A DNA stretch of 46,150 nt, taken from IMG/VR virus record IMGVR_UViG_2695420763_000017, positions 1 through 46,150 of that record; one strand, 5' to 3'. The notes under the pieces were generated by a model. The model saw only the letters and a program-made list of their open reading frames with translations, was not told the DNA's origin and searched no databases. The DNA comes from a virus (lineage: Duplodnaviria; Heunggongvirae; Uroviricota; Caudoviricetes). This document shows positions 28,118 through 46,150 of the stretch, piece after piece (the stretch's first letter is position 1; the number at the start of each line of letters is the position of its first letter). The position numbers and the translations under genes are program-made.

Positions 28118-29671
28118 ATGGGTATTGAAAGTGAATTGATAGAATTCCTTGAGCGCAGCGTCAAAGATGGTGCGAATAAGGCTAGGGATATTGAAATTGT
28201 AAAATTCTACTATGGTCTAAATGACTCGCCTTGGCCCACATTAGATGAAACTGCAAGCCGATTTGGTGTTGGTACCAGAGAAAGAATTAGGCAGTTACTA
28301 AATTTCAAATTCCGAAATAATGTCAGCAAAAACTCTATTCCATCGCTAGGCAAAGTTATTAAAGTTTTGCAGTCCAGAGAATATTGGTTGCTCTCAGAGT
28401 TTGAAGAAGAAACTTATAATGCGGGGCTGGTCGAGAAGGAAAGCCACTTAAAGGGAATATTTAATTTAATTGAGGATGTCAACCTTGATTGTGGGTTCGA
28501 TTTTTACACTCCGGAGTTAAAGCGAGCCACGAGAAACTCGATTGTAACTAGTAAGAATATATTCTTGATCAGGAATTCTGCTATCAAGAACGTTGAAAAG
28601 TTGCTCAAAAAAGCAAAAATTCTCCCGGGACGCTGCGGTATTGCAAATTTAAATTATCTAAAAGAAGAGATGGGTCAGTACTATTCGCTCGTTTCATTGT
28701 TAATTGCAAATGCGCCTACGTCTTGGGTTAGAGTGATTGACGATAATTACTGGTATGTTTTTGAGAATAGAGATAACACCATTATCAACTACAGCGAAAA
28801 GGTTTTTGGTGTTTTTGAAAACTGTGATCCATCTAGATTGGCAGAGACATATAGAAATGCCCTTAATGGAAGGAGTAATAAGTACCCGTATCCACCAGCA
28901 GAAGTTATCGATGACTATTTAAGAAGTTCTATCTATATGATTAATACGCATTCTGGACTAAAATTCATCGGTGAAAAAAACAAGCTTAATGAGATCGAAA
29001 AAGATTTAATATCTTTTTTGGACTCTTCCGGAAGCGTCTCATTTTCAACGCTTTATAAATATTTGTTGCAAAAAGGTTATGGGAAGCCGCATATATTAAA
29101 AACTACGAATTTTTCACCATTAGTATATGTAGATAAGACCAAAGGTAGAAAACATTATATGTATAGCTTAGTTGGTCATCGAATTTCTGCACATAATAAC
29201 ACCTCAGAGATGGATAAATATGAAATTTATCTTCGTAGATTAAGAGCTCTTCTCGATGTTGGAACGGATGAGACAAGAGAGCAGAAAGCTAGAAAAGAGC
29301 AGCATATTTTACAAGAGTGGCTTTTTAAGGATAAAACGCATGAGACCTGCGCTATCTGCGGAAAAGAGTTCAGCGTAAAAACGTTAGTAACGGCACATAA
29401 AAAGCCGAGATCAGACTGCAATGATGCAGAACGCTTAGATCCATATATTGTAATGCCAGTGTGTTTGATGGGGTGCGATTATCTTTACGAAAATATGTAT
29501 ATCTATATTGACGGTACTGAAATTAAACGTGGTCTGACGTTATCGAACGCAAGGAGTGAATCAAGAGTCATTGATGACCTTGTTGGGCGAAAAGTTGAAC
29601 CAAAATGGCTTTTAGGAAATCAGTCTTATTTTCGTTCGCCTAACAAAGAATTGCAGCGGATAAGTCGCTGA
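28118..29671 (+). CDS. HTH (sigma-70 region-4-like) plus C-terminal HNH-like nuclease protein, unknown function
   Basis: AAGGAG RBS; N-terminal LDETASRFGVGTRERIRQLL; C-terminal CAICGKEF...TAHKKPRSDCNDAERLD...PVCLMGCD (about residues 410-455); AT-rich. Confidence 0.75.
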   Translation: MGIESELIEFLERSVKDGANKARDIEIVKFYYGLNDSPWPTLDETASRFGVGTRERIRQLLNFKFRNNVSKNSIPSLGKVIKVLQSREYWLLSEFEEETYNAGLVEKESHLKGIFNLIEDVNLDCGFDFYTPELKRATRNSIVTSKNIFLIRNSAIKNVEKLLKKAKILPGRCGIANLNYLKEEMGQYYSLVSLLIANAPTSWVRVIDDNYWYVFENRDNTIINYSEKVFGVFENCDPSRLAETYRNALNGRSNKYPYPPAEVIDDYLRSSIYMINTHSGLKFIGEKNKLNEIEKDLISFLDSSGSVSFSTLYKYLLQKGYGKPHILKTTNFSPLVYVDKTKGRKHYMYSLVGHRISAHNNTSEMDKYEIYLRRLRALLDVGTDETREQKARKEQHILQEWLFKDKTHETCAICGKEFSVKTLVTAHKKPRSDCNDAERLDPYIVMPVCLMGCDYLYENMYIYIDGTEIKRGLTLSNARSESRVIDDLVGRKVEPKWLLGNQSYFRSPNKELQRISR

Positions 29672-29758
29672 AGACGGTGTTATGTTGAGACTGCTAACTT
29701 CCTGTTTTTGTTGGTGTTGTCCTAACACTGTCTAATCATGATTGGTGGGCTGGCGGGA

Positions 29759-29940
29759 GTTGAAACCGCAGACACGTCGTATGCAAGAACGTGCTGCGGT
29801 TGGCTGGTCAGCTTCTGATAGTGAGAATATTGAATGATTTCAAGCTGTTATCGATTTTACGTATTTTTTGCATGAAAAGATTAGCACCTCATCCCACCGC
29901 TCCTCCATGATTTTACACCACTGTCTCTAGAGCTCTGTGT
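29759..29940 (+). repeat. leader element copy B (paralogous to 27705-27890)
   Basis: Colinear similarity to copy A including inverted repeat GCAGACACGT-N12-ACGTGCTGC. Confidence 0.55.
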
Positions 29941-30060
29941 GCCAGAAGCGGAAGTTCATACCTCTAAGTGGATATTTTGTTAAAATATGCCATCAAAATC
30001 CTTGCTACCTCATGGTTGACAGTGATAAAAGTTGCACAAATTACTGAGAGAGAAATTACA

Positions 30061-30498
30061 ATGAGTGGAGATACCTCTGAGTTTCCTAATAAACTTCCCA
30101 GAAAGCCAATTGGTTGGCGTGAAGAATATAGTGATTTTACAGGTAGTATTATATTCTATATGATATTCCCGTTGCTTCCATTACTTTTTGAGTCAATTAA
30201 CACAGGAACTCACCCTACAATACAATCATTAACAATTACTGCATCAATATACTCTTTTTCCATCGGTGTATCTTCTCGAGATAAAGCTATTTTTTGCTTA
30301 GGGATTTTTTGTGGTTTCATTCTCGCTTATCTTTACGGTAAAGTTAGTGAGCCAAAAGTTATTATATATACCTGGTACTATGTAGTTACGGTGATACTAC
30401 TGGCTGTAATATTTATATTTCATCTTCTCGAACGATTTAATAAACACGTGGTAGAATGTGAGCCTGTTTTCTCCTTTAAGTTTACGAGAGGTATGTAA
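30061..30498 (+). CDS. small polytopic membrane protein (about 4 TM)
   Basis: GAGAGAG RBS then ATG 30061 (ORF track extends to 29968); hydrophobic helices throughout. Confidence 0.55.
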   Translation: MSGDTSEFPNKLPRKPIGWREEYSDFTGSIIFYMIFPLLPLLFESINTGTHPTIQSLTITASIYSFSIGVSSRDKAIFCLGIFCGFILAYLYGKVSEPKVIIYTWYYVVTVILLAVIFIFHLLERFNKHVVECEPVFSFKFTRGM

Positions 30499-30965
30499 TG
30501 GAGGATATTATATTTATGTATGCTGGGTTGATAGTGTCTTCTTTAGCGGCAATTGTAGGCTTAGCTACATCTATCATGCATACTCGTAAAAAAGTTAAAG
30601 CTAATGAAGAGCTTGCAACTGAAATGGCAAAGAGCTTTAGTGAGCTTGAATCTATCAATAAAAGCATAGGGGATTTGGAAGCGACAATTAAAAGGATAGA
30701 TGAAGATGAATTAAAGTTAAGAATAGCAATTGAATCTTTAAAGGAAATGATTTCTGATGAAAAAAAAGAATCTAGGGATATGTTGAAAACCATCGTTAAT
30801 GATGAGGTGTTCATTAAAGTTCTTCTCGAAAGCTATAAAAAACTGGATACCCAGTCAAAGAAGGAGATTTATTTGACTTTTTCCAAGTCGACAGATAGAG
30901 GCCTTTATCGATATATAAAAAGAATAGCTTCATCAGTACTCGATAACTTAATGGTTAAAATATAA
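30498..30965 (+). CDS. membrane-anchored coiled-coil protein
   Basis: N-terminal TM helix (AGLIVSSLAAIVGLATSIM) then charged heptad-like region; start overlaps upstream stop (ATGTAATGG). Confidence 0.6.
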   Translation: MEDIIFMYAGLIVSSLAAIVGLATSIMHTRKKVKANEELATEMAKSFSELESINKSIGDLEATIKRIDEDELKLRIAIESLKEMISDEKKESRDMLKTIVNDEVFIKVLLESYKKLDTQSKKEIYLTFSKSTDRGLYRYIKRIASSVLDNLMVKI

Positions 30966-31520
30966 ATGCGTGCGCGCGAGATACAATTTCTCGCGCATTG
31001 TGTAACCGGCGACAAAACCCTGTTATCATTATAGCGACCCGTTTAGATGGGCTATTTGTGCCCCAACAGCTTCTGGGTATAGATTTCCTCGGCCCTGTAT
31101 AGATACTTTGCTAAAGAGTATTTTAATGGGATTTTGCTTACGTACCATTCTTCTAACGAATGTCTGCCTTATCCTGTGAGCTGCCTTCGCTCAGCATTGG
31201 CCTGTTTCTCGTTGATTTATATACTGCGACACTAACATAGGCGGATATGTCCGCTCCTCGCTCATAACAGACATTCACTACAGTTATGGCAGAAAGGTAT
31301 GCATGCTGGGTGGGGAAAGTATGAAGGAAAAGAAAACTGCTGCGCTGTTTGTCGTCACGTTTATCTTCATTGGCTATGCAAGTCATAATACAAGGTGGGA
31401 CAAAACTGAGACACATAAGGCCTCACAATGGCTTGCAAGGCTTTACATGTTTTGATGTGGTGGGACGTGTGAGCGCAGTGTTGATGGGGTAATGCTTTGA
31501 ATTAGAAGCGGATTCTTATA

Positions 31521-31566
31521 ATTCGTAATGCGAAGGTCGTAGGTTCGACTCCTATTATCGGCGCCA
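31521..31566 (+). other. att core: 46-nt copy of the 3' half of tRNA-Thr(CGU) (thrW-like), not an intact tRNA
   Basis: ATTCGTAATGCGAAGGTCGTAGGTTCGACTCCTATTATCGGCGCCA matches anticodon loop (CGT), variable loop, T-arm and acceptor 3' strand of enterobacterial tRNA-Thr from memory; no 5' half or D-arm upstream. Confidence 0.75.
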
Positions 31567-31732
31567 TTCTAATGTCTCCCCAAGTCTACTCAAGTATTTA
31601 AAAACCTCTTATAATCCGCATGTTAGCGCCCCTTTTAGTCTTTTGACGTCTACTTAAGTACTCCAAAATCTACAGTCAATTGGGGGTACTTTTGGGGGTA
31701 TTTGCTGTTCGGTTTAGTGGAGGTACCCCCAA

Positions 31733-32947
31733 GTGAAACTCAATGCCCGTCAAATAGACACTGCCAAGCCAAAAGAGAAGGCTTACAAGCTGGCTGATGG
31801 TGGTGGTCTGTATCTCTTGGTAAAACCTAGTGGAGGAAAATATTGGCGCTTCAAGTATCGTGTAGCTGGTAAAGAGAAGCTGTTAGCACTAGGTGTGTAT
31901 CCTGAAGTTACCTTGGCTGATGCTCGTGCAAAACGTGAAGAAGCTAAAAGGGGTATCGCTGGGGGTATCGATCCGATGGAAGCGAAACGAGAGGAAAAGA
32001 TTGCCCGGGAAACGCAGTTAAACAACACCTTCAAAGATATTGCCCTTGAGTGGCACAGCAGCAAATTAAAAAAATGGTCTGCTGGTTATGCTTCAGACAT
32101 CCTCGAAGCCTTCAACAAAGATGTGTTCCCTTACATTGGCAAAAAACCAATCGCCGAAATCAAACTACTTGAACTGCTGAATGTGCTGCGGCGCATCGAG
32201 GGGCGCGGTGCTACCGAAAAAGCCAAAAAAGTGAGGCAGCGATGTGGGGAAGTTTTCCGCTATGCAATTGTCACTGGACGTGCTGAGTATAACCCTGCAC
32301 CGGATCTCACCAGCGCGATGCAAGGTCATGAATCTAATCATTATCCTTTCCTCACAGCCAAAGAATTACCTGATTTTTTCAAGGCATTGTCCAGTTACTC
32401 AGGAAGTGCATTGGTTGTTATGGCGGCTCGTTTACTGATTATCACCGGTTTGCGGACTGGCGAACTGCGCGGTGCATTATGGGATGAAATCGATCTCAAC
32501 AAGGCTATCTGGGAGATACCTGCTTCACGGATGAAAATGCGTCGCCCTCATGTAGTGCCTTTGTCTGAGCAGGCTCTTTCGCTTATTGGGCAGATTAAAG
32601 AACTAACTGGCAATTATCCGCTTATGTTTCCCGGCCGTAATGATCCAAGGAAAACAATGAGCGAGGCTAGCATAAACCAAGTATTTAAACGCATCGGCTA
32701 TAACGGAAAGGTTACTGGTCATGGCTTCCGGCACACTATGAGCACCATTTTGCATGAGCAGGGCTATAACACCGCGTGGATAGAGACACAGCTTGCGCAC
32801 GTCGATAAAAACTCAATTCGTGGCACATACAACCATGCGCAATATCTGGATGGGCGGCGGGAAATGCTTCAGTGGTACGCTGATTATATGGATTCGCTCG
32901 AGCATGGCGGAAATGTGGTGCATGGTGAGTTCGGAAAATGCGGGTGA
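31733..32947 (+). CDS. int: tyrosine integrase, P4 family
   Basis: GTG 31733 with GGAGG RBS; N-terminal arm-binding motif GGLYLLVKPSGGKYWRFKYR; catalytic region with HGFRHT and terminal tyrosine region; immediately downstream of the att core. Confidence 0.95.
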   Translation: MKLNARQIDTAKPKEKAYKLADGGGLYLLVKPSGGKYWRFKYRVAGKEKLLALGVYPEVTLADARAKREEAKRGIAGGIDPMEAKREEKIARETQLNNTFKDIALEWHSSKLKKWSAGYASDILEAFNKDVFPYIGKKPIAEIKLLELLNVLRRIEGRGATEKAKKVRQRCGEVFRYAIVTGRAEYNPAPDLTSAMQGHESNHYPFLTAKELPDFFKALSSYSGSALVVMAARLLIITGLRTGELRGALWDEIDLNKAIWEIPASRMKMRRPHVVPLSEQALSLIGQIKELTGNYPLMFPGRNDPRKTMSEASINQVFKRIGYNGKVTGHGFRHTMSTILHEQGYNTAWIETQLAHVDKNSIRGTYNHAQYLDGRREMLQWYADYMDSLEHGGNVVHGEFGKCG

Positions 32948-33075
32948 CTGGTTGAGTATACAGTAGTAGACTTTGAGCGACGAAAGAAAAGGCTGTGTCT
33001 AGGGTCGCTCCCGAAAATCCGTACACCTCGACGGACTGGTACAGCCACTACAGTAGAGGACGCTGAGGTGTGCGT

Positions 33076-33873
33076 ATGATTGATATTCATGCCGAATTAA
33101 ACGAATACAAAAAAGATTTTATTTCTTTACGTGAATTTCTTGAGGTCGTGCTTAAGGTCGCTGGTGATGATTATGATGTTTCAGATGTCATAACTTGGAT
33201 ACTCAGGAGAATAAGCGGAGAACATATCCGCCTGTACACAGTAAATGAATTTAAGCTGTTGGAATCTTTTTGTAACCCGTATCGGGATGAATTTGATAAT
33301 GATGTTCTTTATAGAAATCTGAATGCGGTTCGGAAACGTGGTTGTTTACCTGGTGAGAGGGATGAAAATGGTTTTCTGGTGTCCGGTTATTGGGAAGATC
33401 CCGAATTTGAGAACATTGGATTTATAAGGGGTGAAATTTTCGCAATTTTTCCCGATGTCCTTGACGCGTTAACGAAGCTGGAAGGCGCTAACTCTTCTGA
33501 AAATGACGAGGCACAAGGACGCGATATTGAAAAGAAAGAGTTGCGTACAGAGGATGATTTATTATCCCAAATCGCAATGCTGGAAAAAGAAAACGCAGAG
33601 TTAAGGGCAAGGATAGAGCAGTTAGAGCAAGAGCGCCCGATACACTTATATAAATACTGGGATAAAGACCCATTAGCTAAGGCTATTGAGATTAGAAACA
33701 GAGAGTGGGCCAATTACGATCCAGAAAATGATTTTGCCACCAGGGGAAATCAAGAAGCGATAACCAGGGAGCTTAAGCAGTGGGGGGCAAGTAATGCACT
33801 TGCAACGCTCATAGAGAGGACTGCCTGCCCTATTAACCGAGACAACAGCCAAAAGAACGCAAAGCCGGATTAA
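33076..33873 (+). CDS. hypothetical acidic coiled-coil protein (cargo next to int)
   Basis: GAGG RBS then ATG 33076; central EKENAELRARIEQLEQE coiled coil; unrecognised. Confidence 0.6.
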   Translation: MIDIHAELNEYKKDFISLREFLEVVLKVAGDDYDVSDVITWILRRISGEHIRLYTVNEFKLLESFCNPYRDEFDNDVLYRNLNAVRKRGCLPGERDENGFLVSGYWEDPEFENIGFIRGEIFAIFPDVLDALTKLEGANSSENDEAQGRDIEKKELRTEDDLLSQIAMLEKENAELRARIEQLEQERPIHLYKYWDKDPLAKAIEIRNREWANYDPENDFATRGNQEAITRELKQWGASNALATLIERTACPINRDNSQKNAKPD

Positions 33874-33888
33874 CGCACCATACCGCAT

Positions 33889-34034
33889 ACCCTGAGGGTG
33901 ATTTACTGTTACCCTGAGGGTATTTTTTTATCTTCCCCGTCAATTTTACCATCACCCTTAGGGTAGATTTCCTCCCGATTACCATCACCCTTAGGGTAGA
34001 TTTCCTTCCGGTAACCATTAGGCCTGAGGGTATG
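33889..34034. promoter_or_regulatory. array of five palindromic sites ACCCT(G/T)AGGGT (putative operator)
   Basis: Sites at 33889-33899, 33911-33921, 33955-33965, 33988-33998 and a variant near 34023; two lie in a 26-bp direct repeat ACCATCACCCTTAGGGTAGATTTCCT. Confidence 0.5.
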
Positions 34035-34100
34035 AAAATATTCGTTATTTCTGTGCCATGATTACCTCGTCAAATTGAGTAGACGTTATGAGGTAAATAT

Positions 34101-34298
34101 ATGTCAAATACGCTTATTCGTTTAACAGAAGTTCAGCGTAGAACTGGATATAGCAAGGCATGGATTTATCGCCTTATGGGGCAAGGTAAATTTCCTGCAT
34201 CAGTTAAAATTGGCTCGCGAGCTATTGCTTTCGTTGAGAGTGAAATTGACGAGTGGATTAATCAGCGTATTGCGGAATCACGCGGAACAGCTACCTGA
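34101..34298 (+). CDS. alpA: AlpA-family transcriptional regulator / excisionase-like protein
   Basis: GAGG RBS; LIRLTEVQRRTGYSKAWIYRLMGQGKFPASVKIGSRAIAFVESEIDEWI matches the AlpA HTH family. Confidence 0.85.
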   Translation: MSNTLIRLTEVQRRTGYSKAWIYRLMGQGKFPASVKIGSRAIAFVESEIDEWINQRIAESRGTAT

Positions 34299-34375
34299 TT
34301 AAATGGCTACGGGGCTATTGCCCCCAGCTATCCACCAGCAAATAAAAGTAACTTAATTCGATAGCAGGAGTTTTT

Positions 34376-35176
34376 ATGAAATTTCCAAAAACGCCCGTAC
34401 AGGGGCGGGGCTTCGTTCGGCCTGAAAACCAGAATCTGCAAAATTTCGGCGAAATTATCCCGATTATTTCCGGCGTTATTGGCGGGAGTGAAACCACTAT
34501 TGTTAGCGCCAGAGCGTTACATAAGGCGTTAGGTGTAGGGCGCGTTTTCCGTTCGTGGATCAAGGGGCGCATTGAAGAATATGGGTTCACGGAAGGCGTG
34601 GATTATGAGGTTGTTGAATATTTGAGCCGACCCGATCCGGTGAGCGCAAAATCTCGCCAGCAAACCGCTCTTGAGTACATCATCACAGTGAACATGGCGA
34701 AAGAACTGGCGATGGTCGAACGTACCGAACAGGGCCGCGCCGTTCGCCAGTACTTTATCAAATGCGAGGAGGAGCTACACAAGGTTGCGCCTGTTCGTTC
34801 CGCAGCGTTACGCCGGGAACTGAAAGCCCGTATCACAGTTGCCAGCTACTTTAAGCCAATGTGTGCCGCGCTGGAGGCGTACCGGGCTGAACTGGGTAAA
34901 AACACACTCCAGCACCACTACACCACGGAAGCGAACATGCTGGCGCGTATCGTGCTGGGTGGCATGACTGCAAAACAGTGGGCACTGGCGAACGGCATTA
35001 CAGGCGAACCACGCGACCACATGAGTACGTTGCAGCTTGAGCACCTTTCTTACCTTGAGCAGAGCAATATCACGCTGATTGAGTTAGGCCAGGACTACCA
35101 CCAGCGGAAGGCTGAATTAATTCGTCTTTCGCAGCGTTGGTTAGCCCGTCGCATGGAGGAAAACAGCCATGTGTAA
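34376..35176 (+). CDS. phage antirepressor-like / regulatory protein
   Basis: AGGAG RBS; 266 aa; N-terminal domain resembles antirepressor/Rha-type regulators (inference from memory). Confidence 0.55.
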   Translation: MKFPKTPVQGRGFVRPENQNLQNFGEIIPIISGVIGGSETTIVSARALHKALGVGRVFRSWIKGRIEEYGFTEGVDYEVVEYLSRPDPVSAKSRQQTALEYIITVNMAKELAMVERTEQGRAVRQYFIKCEEELHKVAPVRSAALRRELKARITVASYFKPMCAALEAYRAELGKNTLQHHYTTEANMLARIVLGGMTAKQWALANGITGEPRDHMSTLQLEHLSYLEQSNITLIELGQDYHQRKAELIRLSQRWLARRMEENSHV

Positions 35177-35635
35177 CGCTCTGACCGTTACAAAAAGAGA
35201 AAGCGCCCCGTTGCCGGAGCGCCTTTGTGAACGAATAGCCTACTGCGCCATATTGCTTACTGTCTACGAGGCAGATTATAGCGTTGTGGTCGCACAGAGT
35301 GAAGGCGCTGATCACCGTTACTACAGCACGCCAGAAATGCAGAATATTTTGCTGCAAAATGTCGTTGGTCACACTGTCCGGAAAGCAAAAAATTTTGCTG
35401 GTGGCGCGACTGATGCGATTTTGTCAGGTCGCCAGGTGCTGATCAATCTGATGTCTGATTTCGTTCTGGATAAAACAAAGGCGACCGCAGAGGGCCGCCA
35501 GTGGGAAAGCTACATACCTGAACGCATCGCCAACAATGCCAGATTTACGGCTGGTGGGCAATGTGTCAGCTTTGCACCAATGACTCTATGTTTAACTGAG
35601 GGTCATTATGGTGAATATGCTGGCTTGCTGGTGGG

Positions 35636-35836
35636 CTATTCCTGCTCTTTAACATTGCCATGCCGCGATGTTTTCCAGGTATGCGACCCCATTTTTGTGC
35701 GCCTGTACTCTTTAAGGAATTTCTCAAGGACAAACGCACAGGGCGCGAATCTGTCTGACTCATGCTCGTACGCTATCTTTCTGCGCTGTCTTTTCCGTGC
35801 CGGTGATGGTGTATTGGTTGATTCTTTGTTGGTCAT
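35636..35836 (-). CDS. small hypothetical basic protein
   Basis: Minus-strand ORF downstream of the RHH gene; ends in the same ...KEQE-stop and shared 17-bp DNA repeat; could be non-coding. Confidence 0.3.
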   Translation of the reverse strand: MTNKESTNTPSPARKRQRRKIAYEHESDRFAPCAFVLEKFLKEYRRTKMGSHTWKTSRHGNVKEQE

Positions 35837-35893
35837 GGCGCTGCCCTGTAAAATAATGCACCGTAGTTCCTCACACCACGGCACCTATAGTGG

Positions 35894-36199
35894 TTATTCC
35901 TGCTCTTTAGCTTTGCGCCGCTGGAGTTCTTCACGCGCGACGGTGACGAGTTGCCCGATTTCCTCGGCAGCTTTGACTCCGATTTTTTCCACCTGCGCTA
36001 GGGCATCGAGCGAAGAAACCAGGGGATTTTCTCCGCTTCCTTCTGCCTGGCGGCGGGCGATTTCACCGCGAACGGCTGTAATCACGAAAGCGGCTATTGT
36101 TTCCCCTTCCGTTTTCGAATTTTCCATTTCCTCGATTACATCATGGGGGAAGCGGATATTTTTCATTTGCGATCTGCTGTTGATGTTTCCTGTTGCCAT
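35894..36199 (-). CDS. Arc/MetJ-type ribbon-helix-helix repressor-like protein
   Basis: KNIRFPHDVIEEMENSKTEGETIAAFVITAVRGEIARR fits a beta-strand plus two-helix RHH fold; transcribed leftward from the divergent region (alternative start 36166). Confidence 0.55.
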   Translation of the reverse strand: MATGNINSRSQMKNIRFPHDVIEEMENSKTEGETIAAFVITAVRGEIARRQAEGSGENPLVSSLDALAQVEKIGVKAAEEIGQLVTVAREELQRRKAKEQE

Positions 36200-36261
36200 C
36201 AGAATGTCCGGTTATTTTGAGGTGTGTACACATTACACCAAAAGGTGTGTTGATAAAACAC

Positions 36262-36291
36262 TTGACACTGTAGCACACTTAAATTTAATTT
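36262..36291 (+). promoter_or_regulatory. putative rightward early promoter within divergent operator region
   Basis: TTGACA (36262-36267), 17-18 nt spacer, TTAATT/TAATTT; flanked by GTGTACAC-type palindromes. Confidence 0.3.
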
Positions 36292-36389
36292 GTATACACA
36301 CCAATTGTTGTGGTGTATATACAGCAACGCCCCGCAGTGGTGGCACACATGCAGGGCGTCTAACCAAACCGTTAAACGAGGTAACGATT

Positions 36390-36755
36390 ATGGCTGGAAC
36401 ACAGCATACCCAAACTCACCCTAAATTTATATACACCTTCCTGGCGGTGCACCGTGATTGCATTGCTGACGGTAAAAACACTGTACACGTAGCCGCCGAT
36501 ACGCTGGTTGATGCCTGCGAGATGCTCAATGACATGGGCTATATCTCGGCAACATGGAAAGGGCGCGAAGAAAACACGCTGTTTATTCAGAAATGCGAAA
36601 ACAATTTTATCTGGCGTTTTATCGCCCTGAGTACGGCACAACCGCGCGTGATTCACATCGAGGCCACCAGCGAACAGGAAGCACGCCAGCAATCTCCTGA
36701 TGGCTGCGTGATGGTATTCGCTGCCCGTATTCGCCAGGAGGTGGAGCATGTGTAA
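36390..36755 (+). CDS. hypothetical protein, first gene of rightward operon
   Basis: GAGG RBS 8 nt upstream of ATG 36390; 121 aa; in-frame distal part of the long 35169-36755 open frame. Confidence 0.6.
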   Translation: MAGTQHTQTHPKFIYTFLAVHRDCIADGKNTVHVAADTLVDACEMLNDMGYISATWKGREENTLFIQKCENNFIWRFIALSTAQPRVIHIEATSEQEARQQSPDGCVMVFAARIRQEVEHV

Positions 36756-45370: not shown

Positions 45371-46150
45371 ATGAAGATGCCCTCAATCAAAGTTATTTCA
45401 CTTATATTAATAGCTATTGTATGGTATTTTTACTTTTCTCATTTCAATCATTGGGATAGCCCGTTAGATATCTTTAATGCTAGCAAATGGATGGGTTTTT
45501 CCAATGATAAAGGTGATTGGGGCACTTTCGGGGATTTTGTAGGAGGTGTGCTTAATCCTATCTTGACCTTCATTACAATTGTTATGCTCATTAATTCCTT
45601 GAAACTTCAACGAGAAGCAAACGAGCAACTAATTAAAGACGAAAGAAGACAAGAGAAAGACGTTCTTCTAAAACGGTTTGAAGACGGTTTTTATAACCTT
45701 ATCTCTTCAGAAAGAGAGGAGTTTAGTTGTTTTACTATTAACATTAACGGAAAAGAATACCGCTCATCTGCTGCTGTTAGTGAATTGGAAGAGGCAATAT
45801 GGGCTTTTATTGAGAAACAAATAGATGAAAAAGGAGCTTGCGAAATTGAGGATGTTAAAAATTACATAAATAAAATTGATGAGGATTCATCTATGGCAAT
45901 ATTTTCCATGGTGCGATGTGTATATGTTGTTTTTAAGGTTGTTAAGGATAAATGCCCTGAAGAACATCAAGATTACTACTTAGATATTTTTATGAATATG
46001 TTACCAGTTAAACTGGTAAATTTAGTTGCTATTGTGTCTGTGTATATGGACTGGAAAAACGTAAAATATATTATTGATGGTGGAAAAGGATTTTCGGATA
46101 ATGAAGCAGTTAAAGAATATATTAATACTTGGAAGGAGTTTCATGAATAA
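45371..46150 (+). CDS. hypothetical membrane protein (259 aa; two N-terminal TM helices plus charged domain)
   Basis: ATG immediately follows upstream TAA; TM1 about residues 6-22, TM2 about 53-76; stop TAA at window end. Confidence 0.7.
   Translation: MKMPSIKVISLILIAIVWYFYFSHFNHWDSPLDIFNASKWMGFSNDKGDWGTFGDFVGGVLNPILTFITIVMLINSLKLQREANEQLIKDERRQEKDVLLKRFEDGFYNLISSEREEFSCFTININGKEYRSSAAVSELEEAIWAFIEKQIDEKGACEIEDVKNYINKIDEDSSMAIFSMVRCVYVVFKVVKDKCPEEHQDYYLDIFMNMLPVKLVNLVAIVSVYMDWKNVKYIIDGGKGFSDNEAVKEYINTWKEFHE

Follow-up and report, generated by a model that had tools for sequence, protein, structure and literature searches.

A mobile two-gene inner-membrane cassette at a prophage accessory site is a candidate phage defense module

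In phage lambda, the RexAB system acts by membrane depolarization on infection; RexB is a protein of about 144 amino acids (aa) with four membrane helices, and RexA is a soluble protein of 279 aa. The T4 Imm and P22 SieA proteins block DNA transfer, and the cell is not killed. Membrane-acting systems are, to our knowledge, among the least understood of the defenses. In P2, the position between the tail fiber assembly gene G and the sheath gene FI is the slot of the Z/fun phage exclusion gene and a recognized site of acquired genes (PMC3091744), and among the cargo of P2 hotspots are validated systems whose effectors span the membrane (Rousset et al. 2022, PMC9122126). Here, we have analyzed a pair of overlapping genes, A (positions 30061 to 30498) and B (positions 30498 to 30965), on the plus strand of a 46,150-nucleotide stretch of DNA from a virus of the class Caudoviricetes (IMG/VR record IMGVR_UViG_2695420763_000017, positions 1 to 46,150); this whole stretch is referred to below as the window. 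Gene A is predicted to encode a four-helix inner-membrane protein of 145 aa with both termini in the cytoplasm, and gene B is predicted to encode a protein of 155 aa with an N-terminal membrane helix, a long, heptad-rich cytoplasmic helix, and a conserved C-terminal helix pair.

The A-B pair is a credible candidate for a new membrane phage defense system, a function that we infer. The most likely job of the pair, which we put forward tentatively, is that of a self-contained, horizontally mobile inner-membrane module that protects the lysogen against other phages. This reading is drawn because the two genes are strictly paired, the pair is rare and patchily distributed, its neighborhood changes from one locus to the next, it repeatedly occupies accessory slots in phages, a known exclusion slot among them, and its neighbors are frequently defense or toxin genes.

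Homologous loci were obtained from pattern scans of three collections, comprising genomes, viral contigs, and metagenomes, and 97 loci were run with hidden Markov models (HMMs) of A and B. The genome scan, which was built on a 10-sequence alignment of A, gave 12 matches in 185,579 species genomes, with loci in Vibrio, Photobacterium, Shewanella, Alteromonadaceae, Rhizobacter, Stahlbacteria, Gemmatimonadota, Prochloron, and Gemmataceae. About 70 distinct loci were found, from Proteobacteria, Cyanobacteria, Gemmatimonadota, Planctomycetota, and others. Gene A was present in 92 loci, and every one of these that had at least 450 nucleotides (nt) of downstream sequence carried a B-type gene on the same strand within −50 to +150 nt of A; four B genes that were missed by the HMM were recovered by eye. 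An overlap, or a gap of less than about 40 nt, is the rule in the homologous loci. When 573 neighboring open reading frames (ORFs) from the 70 distinct loci were clustered, no family was present in more than three loci; the module therefore consists of exactly two genes. The A family is itself large: an exhaustive HMMER search returned 373 clusters at an E value of ≤1e-3, so that the family comprises at least 373 clusters, and 72 clusters at an E value of ≤1e-10, with lengths that were nearly all between 115 and 170 aa.

Within phages, the pair has the properties of prophage accessory (moron or hotspot) cargo, in that conserved phage genes flank a variable slot, which holds the pair here and different cargo in related phages. 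It follows a tail fiber assembly gene in the window, in strain D9, and in a degenerate prophage at thrW. In the Peduovirus P2_4A7b, the pair lies between the tail fiber assembly gene G and the sheath gene FI; in a lambdoid contig (L037), it lies between the Q antiterminator gene and the lysis genes; and in another phage contig, it is beside an integrase gene. The A homologue of P2_4A7b (L100 5001-5408, corresponding to NC_049390.1 16191-16598) is annotated over its last 69 codons only (gp23), which is likely to be an annotation error.

Outside these phages, the immediate neighbors vary. In Pectobacterium, the pair is beside AIPR and DUF3800 genes, and a CP4-type island that carries it also has CbtA/CbeA, antirestriction, McrA-like HNH, and Mrr genes. 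A type III methylase and a helicase are encoded directly upstream of the pair in the Stahlbacteria locus, a RES toxin is encoded directly downstream in the Alteromonadaceae locus, a type V retron reverse transcriptase is encoded 0.8 kb downstream in Photobacterium, and PDC-S54 is encoded directly upstream in the Gemmataceae locus. A bSEFIR protein was present near the pair in one of 10 loci, and this occurrence was not assigned to a particular locus. Overall, about 5 of 10 distant genome loci, together with most of the enterobacterial contexts, had defense or toxin genes no more than 5 kb away; these are raw counts from a small sample. In the L028 locus, an RNase HII gene is directly upstream of the pair. 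The pair is also carried on plasmid-like contigs of about 110 kb; its 60-nt flank (L009 7400-7460) is present, and the pair absent, in 94 nonmobilizable Klebsiella plasmids of about 110 kb (e.g., NZ_CP024460.1), which suggests another variable cargo site in this plasmid or phage-plasmid family.

The window is Escherichia coli DNA, with the pair at the end of a prophage. As the initial annotation, which was made from the letters of the sequence, had noted, the pair lies downstream of a leader copy; this conserved leader or junction sequence, copy B (positions 29700 to 29958, plus strand), directly precedes the A-B cassette and is the third of three copies, located at about 26007, 27730, and 29788. 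The other two copies span approximately 26000 to 26150 and 27640 to 27900, and cargo-specific sequence of the A-B cassette starts at about 29960. The upstream genes encode baseplate, tail fiber, and tail fiber assembly proteins, the last of which ends at 25977, and three cargo units follow, each with one leader copy: a NeuD-type acetyltransferase with a MaoC dehydratase, a 517-aa protein, and the A-B pair. The leader, which is noncoding and about 257 to 260 nt long, was found in 3,358 Escherichia coli records and heads unrelated cargo genes in other E. coli prophages and strains; the A-B pair was found in 6 of 5,426 complete E. coli genomes. Because the leader is common, the pair is rare, and the cargo varies, we regard the pair as an infrequent cargo cassette that can be exchanged at a widespread prophage junction. 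The leader may act as a common 5′ regulatory region, or it may mark a junction at which cargo is exchanged by recombination. It matched no Rfam family, the only hit being a subthreshold match to CssrB (E value of 0.63), and its identification with the cold-shock-type region that precedes ynaE in K-12 was rejected, since no similarity was detected.

Both ORFs (29968 to 30498 and 30498 to 30965 in the ORF listing, plus strand) are considered to be real genes because they have homologues, show purifying selection, and keep the same order everywhere that was examined. The stop and start codons overlap in TAATG (positions 30496 to 30500, plus strand; the junction reads GGT ATG TAA TGG), a signal of translational coupling in which the TAA at 30496 to 30498 and the ATG at 30498 to 30500 share base 30498, and a GAGAGG sequence lies 8 to 13 nt upstream of the gene B start codon. 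The pair has a G+C content of 33.4% and is part of an AT-rich block at 25 to 31 kb (34 to 43% G+C) that follows phage structural genes of 50 to 59% G+C. The RefSeq product for gene A is 176 aa long and begins at a GTG codon at 29968; the homologues from Pectobacterium and metagenomes are 145 to 148 aa long, and the upstream extension is not conserved. On both of these grounds, the ATG codon at 30061 is favored as the start of gene A, and the RefSeq annotation probably begins 31 codons too early, with positions 29968 to 30060 included in error. The initial description of two overlapping, AT-rich genes, the first of them starting at 30061, holds.

Selection has acted unequally on the two genes. 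In comparisons with close and intermediate homologues, the ratio of nonsynonymous to synonymous substitution rates was 0.02 to 0.14 for A and 0.20 to 0.32 for B, and in one locus (L043), identity to the window protein is 76% for A but only 39% for B. These values indicate that A is tightly constrained, that B diverges quickly, and that both are functional genes. Such a contrast in rates is what a conserved effector paired with a fast-evolving sensor would show.

The AlphaFold model of protein A was of high confidence (predicted local distance difference test [pLDDT] score, 92.5; predicted template modeling score, 0.81), with helices at residues 21 to 48, 54 to 71, 75 to 95, and 104 to 131. Hydropathy analysis gave three strong peaks and one weaker peak, and counts of lysine and arginine in 60 A-family members placed the N terminus, the loop between helices 2 and 3, and the C terminus inside the cell. 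In the family alignment, P37, R125, and H129 are invariant and L38, P40, E44, Y64, S72, G93, H121, and E124 are nearly so; these residues make up the motifs LPLLPLxxE in helix 1, Y..IGxSS in helix 2, and HxxER(Y/F)N(R/K)H at the cytoplasmic end of helix 4. The conserved H-x2-E-R-x-N-x-H cluster thus faces the cytoplasm, as do both termini. At least five A-family members begin with a fused RNase H1-type hybrid-binding domain, which is consistent with a cytoplasmic N terminus and hints that A may contact RNA-DNA hybrids or double-stranded RNA.

Protein B has a single membrane helix at approximately residues 4 to 27 (IIFMYAGLIVSSLAAIVGLATSIM), which contains neither aspartate nor glutamate and is followed by HTRKKVK. 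Of 68 distinct B homologues, 65 have more lysine and arginine after this helix than before it; the long helical and C-terminal domain is therefore predicted to be cytoplasmic. The heptad contrast of residues 37 to 64 was reached by none of 300 shuffled sequences. Although the B homologues are only 13 to 19% identical to the window protein, they share its architecture and the C-terminal motif L.QPS.RGR..Y..KL, which reads KSTDRGLYRYIKRI in the window. C-terminal additions, either pentapeptide repeats or the C-terminal part of DUF1822, are present in some B proteins; examples of the fusions in the family (hybrid-binding domain on A and pentapeptide or DUF1822 on B) are P0018, P0027 (a hybrid-binding domain fusion), P0043, P0112, L059 4018-4668, L088 455-1807, and L063 5408-6184. 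The membrane topology outlined in the initial annotation, with about four transmembrane helices in A and one N-terminal transmembrane helix before a heptad-rich cytoplasmic domain in B, is borne out by the hydropathy profiles, the charge distribution, the heptad analysis, and the model of A.

Neither protein had a significant match in Pfam, NCBIfam, or PADLOC, and the same was true of 60 A-family members. In PADLOC-DB v2, which includes Kiwa, Zorya, Rst, and PD-T systems and PDC candidates, A gave no hits, none of its 60 relatives had a match at an E value of ≤0.01, and B gave only noise of the coiled-coil type (LmuB, 1.3e-3; PDC-M09A, 9.6e-3). Sequence-profile searches of the PDB were negative, the best E values being 0.022 (to an uncharacterized protein of 100 aa) and 0.07, and fold searches with protein A returned nothing significant, including no significant match to a holin. 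No publication was found for the RefSeq protein identifiers or for descriptions of such a system. Homology to a transporter or a structural component, which the initial annotation had held to be incompatible with its reading, was looked for in the Pfam, NCBIfam, PADLOC, PDB sequence, and fold searches, and none was seen. Protein A did match phrog_22626 (E value of 3.3e-26, with residues 17 to 139 aligned to positions 6 to 130 of the 133 profile positions). Gene A and its phage-borne homologues match this PHROGs family at E values of 3e-26 to 2e-58; however, the family is one of unknown function, and it provides no tie to gene B, which has no PHROG. As far as sequence comparison goes, the pair is an uncharacterized family without homology to any known superinfection exclusion or abortive infection module.

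If the pair is a defense module, protein B would be the sensor or regulator and protein A the effector. B is tethered by its one membrane helix and extends a fast-evolving coiled coil into the cytoplasm, ending in the conserved RG...Y helix pair. On infection, B would change state, perhaps triggered by a phage protein or phage nucleic acid on the cytoplasmic side of the membrane, and A would then compromise the membrane, through an ion leak or depolarization or possibly through a metal-dependent reaction at the His/Glu cluster. Such damage would stop phage development, as in abortive infection by lambda RexAB. In its most extended form, which is possible but somewhat unlikely, this proposal would make the pair the founding example of an undescribed, cross-phylum inner-membrane immune module, in which B detects a phage cue and switches on A, an effector of a new fold whose His/Glu/Arg cluster gates an ion leak or catalyzes a membrane reaction, helped in some lineages by the hybrid-binding domain on A or by the pentapeptide or DUF1822 region on B.

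An active A-B pair would represent a compact, 0.9-kb, two-protein membrane defense system that is made of proteins without known relatives and that is present in cyanobacteria and planctomycetes as well as in E. coli prophages. The conserved pairing, the high-confidence model of A, the small number of invariant residues, and the natural domain fusions all offer handles on its mechanism.

Several observations weigh against a role in defense. No homology links either protein to a known defense system, and for about half of the distant loci the setting is that of an ordinary chromosome, with neighboring genes for AcrB and a rhodanese, peptidases, LptF/G, or RNase HII. The assignment of B as the sensor and A as the effector was made from evolutionary rates only, the structural model of B is of low confidence (pLDDT, 62; shallow alignment), and a consensus scan found no clear sigma-70 promoter in the leader. 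The initial annotation had called the architecture typical of superinfection exclusion or abortive infection membrane modules. The architecture is as it was described; however, architecture by itself is weak ground for such an assignment, and no known exclusion or abortive infection homologue was detected. Support for defense or exclusion comes instead, independently of the architecture, from the genomic context: the P2 Z/fun slot, the other accessory slots, and the defense neighbors.

The housekeeping surroundings of about half of the distant loci, the presence of the family in several phyla, and the position of the conserved His, Glu, and Arg residues of A at the membrane interface would also suit a module for membrane homeostasis or stress that has nothing to do with phages, in which A handles ions or metals, B is a tethered regulator or scaffold, and mobile elements occasionally pick up the pair. 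We regard this explanation as unlikely given the very patchy distribution in both the species genomes and E. coli, the lack of any conserved neighborhood, the repeated occupation of phage accessory slots, and the fast evolution of B. It is also conceivable, but quite unlikely, that an A-B complex in the inner membrane prevents incoming phage DNA from being transferred while leaving the cell alive, that is, superinfection exclusion at entry, as carried out by Imm and SieA. Both proteins are predicted to be in the inner membrane, the prophage slots adjoin tail fiber genes and include the Z/fun exclusion slot, and some family members have pentapeptide repeats, which are able to mimic DNA, on B or a hybrid-binding domain on A. 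However, the conserved surface is nearly all cytoplasmic, and many homologues are not in phages but on chromosomes, beside genes of the abortive infection or toxin type; moreover, entry blockers are usually narrow and specific to a phage lineage and are not kept across phyla.

A role in stabilizing the mobile element, as an addiction or toxin-antitoxin-like pair in which B restrains a membrane toxin, A, is more doubtful still. The genes are indeed strictly paired and coupled, they are carried by prophages, islands, and the plasmid-like contigs of about 110 kb, and they adjoin other toxin-antitoxin genes, namely, RES and CbtA/CbeA; yet A is conserved across phyla and, with 145 aa and four helices, is unlike the short membrane toxins known so far, and no autoregulatory DNA-binding domain is evident. 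Such a role would also overlap with abortive infection rather than exclude it. The remaining proposal, that the pair is an accessory to phage lysis, with A acting like a holin or antiholin and B like a spanin, is scarcely credible and has been largely refuted by topology and distribution. B resembles Rz in having an N-terminal membrane helix and a coiled coil, it has a weak match to phrog_739 (“Rz-like spanin”; E value of 0.0059), and the L037 pair lies next to the lysis genes. On the other hand, the charge distribution places the coiled coil of B in the cytoplasm, opposite to that of Rz, B lacks a lipoprotein partner, whether embedded or adjacent, the homologues are mostly outside phages, and separate holin, endolysin, and spanin genes are present in both L037 and the related strain 23CRST025. 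Assignment of the pair as a holin or an Rz-type spanin was accordingly rejected.

Other features of the window merit description. A GC-rich hairpin (GCGCGAGA / TCTCGCGC; positions 30975 to 30997, plus strand) begins 10 nt past the gene B stop codon, with a folding energy of −16.3 kcal/mol and a z score of only −1.35 relative to shuffled sequences. It lacks a T-run and was not called by the terminator scan; a terminator after gene B was therefore dropped as an assignment, the hairpin being no better than the shuffled sequences, and it may at most weakly mark a transcript end. Directly after the tail fiber assembly gene, positions 26192 to 27308 (plus strand) encode a NeuD/PglD-type hexapeptide acetyltransferase and a MaoC-like dehydratase, which may be cargo for the modification of surface polysaccharide (lysogenic conversion). 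The 517-aa cargo protein (28118 to 29671, plus strand), which lies behind leader copy X and is annotated as two ORFs in strain D9, has an N terminus that weakly resembles sigma-70 region 4 helix-turn-helix sequences, including that of the defense-associated sigma factor MzaA, and a C terminus with an HNH-like Cys/His motif and a match to phrog_14240 (8.7e-16); it may be another defense gene. A second mobile element spans approximately 31250 to 46150, with a P4-type integrase gene at 31733 to 32947, and other genomes match from about 31250 onward. In other genomes, this integrase gene is followed by genes for an AlpA-type regulator and an AntA/AntB antirepressor, and strain D9 has the yagP/pao locus in place of the second element.

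The combination of a multihelix membrane protein with a second protein in one operon is also found in the Kiwa (KwaAB) and Zorya or MotAB-type defense systems; nevertheless, neither A nor B had a PADLOC match to the KwaA, KwaB, or Zor models. Unlike MotB, ZorB, and ExbD, B lacks both an acidic residue in the membrane helix and a periplasmic domain, and the bulk of the protein is cytoplasmic. A stator pair of the MotAB, ExbBD, or ZorAB type was rejected, since there is no aspartate or glutamate in the helix of B and its C-terminal domain is predicted to be cytoplasmic in 65 of the 68 homologues.

The likeness to P2 Fun(Z) is one of position, in that the P2_4A7b pair is exactly in the G-FI slot, and implies no relationship to Fun, Old, or Tin. 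The hotspot that Rousset et al. studied by experiment is also a different one, the cos-proximal A-Q locus rather than the Z region (PMC9122126). If the A-B pair is active, the slot after the tail fiber genes, with its shared leader, would be a cargo exchange site like the P2 and P4 hotspots.

Homology to the lambda proteins was rejected on the basis of profile comparisons: the A profile (60 sequences) gave an hhalign probability of 1.2% with RexB over 13 aligned columns, and the B profile gave a probability of 0.2% with RexA. The pair also differs from RexAB in that B is anchored in the membrane and has 155 aa, whereas RexA is soluble, and in the gene order relative to the membrane partner. 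In both cases, however, a two-gene prophage module combines a multihelix membrane partner with a second protein at the cytoplasmic face, and it is lambda RexAB that offers the closest functional analogy to the A-B pair.
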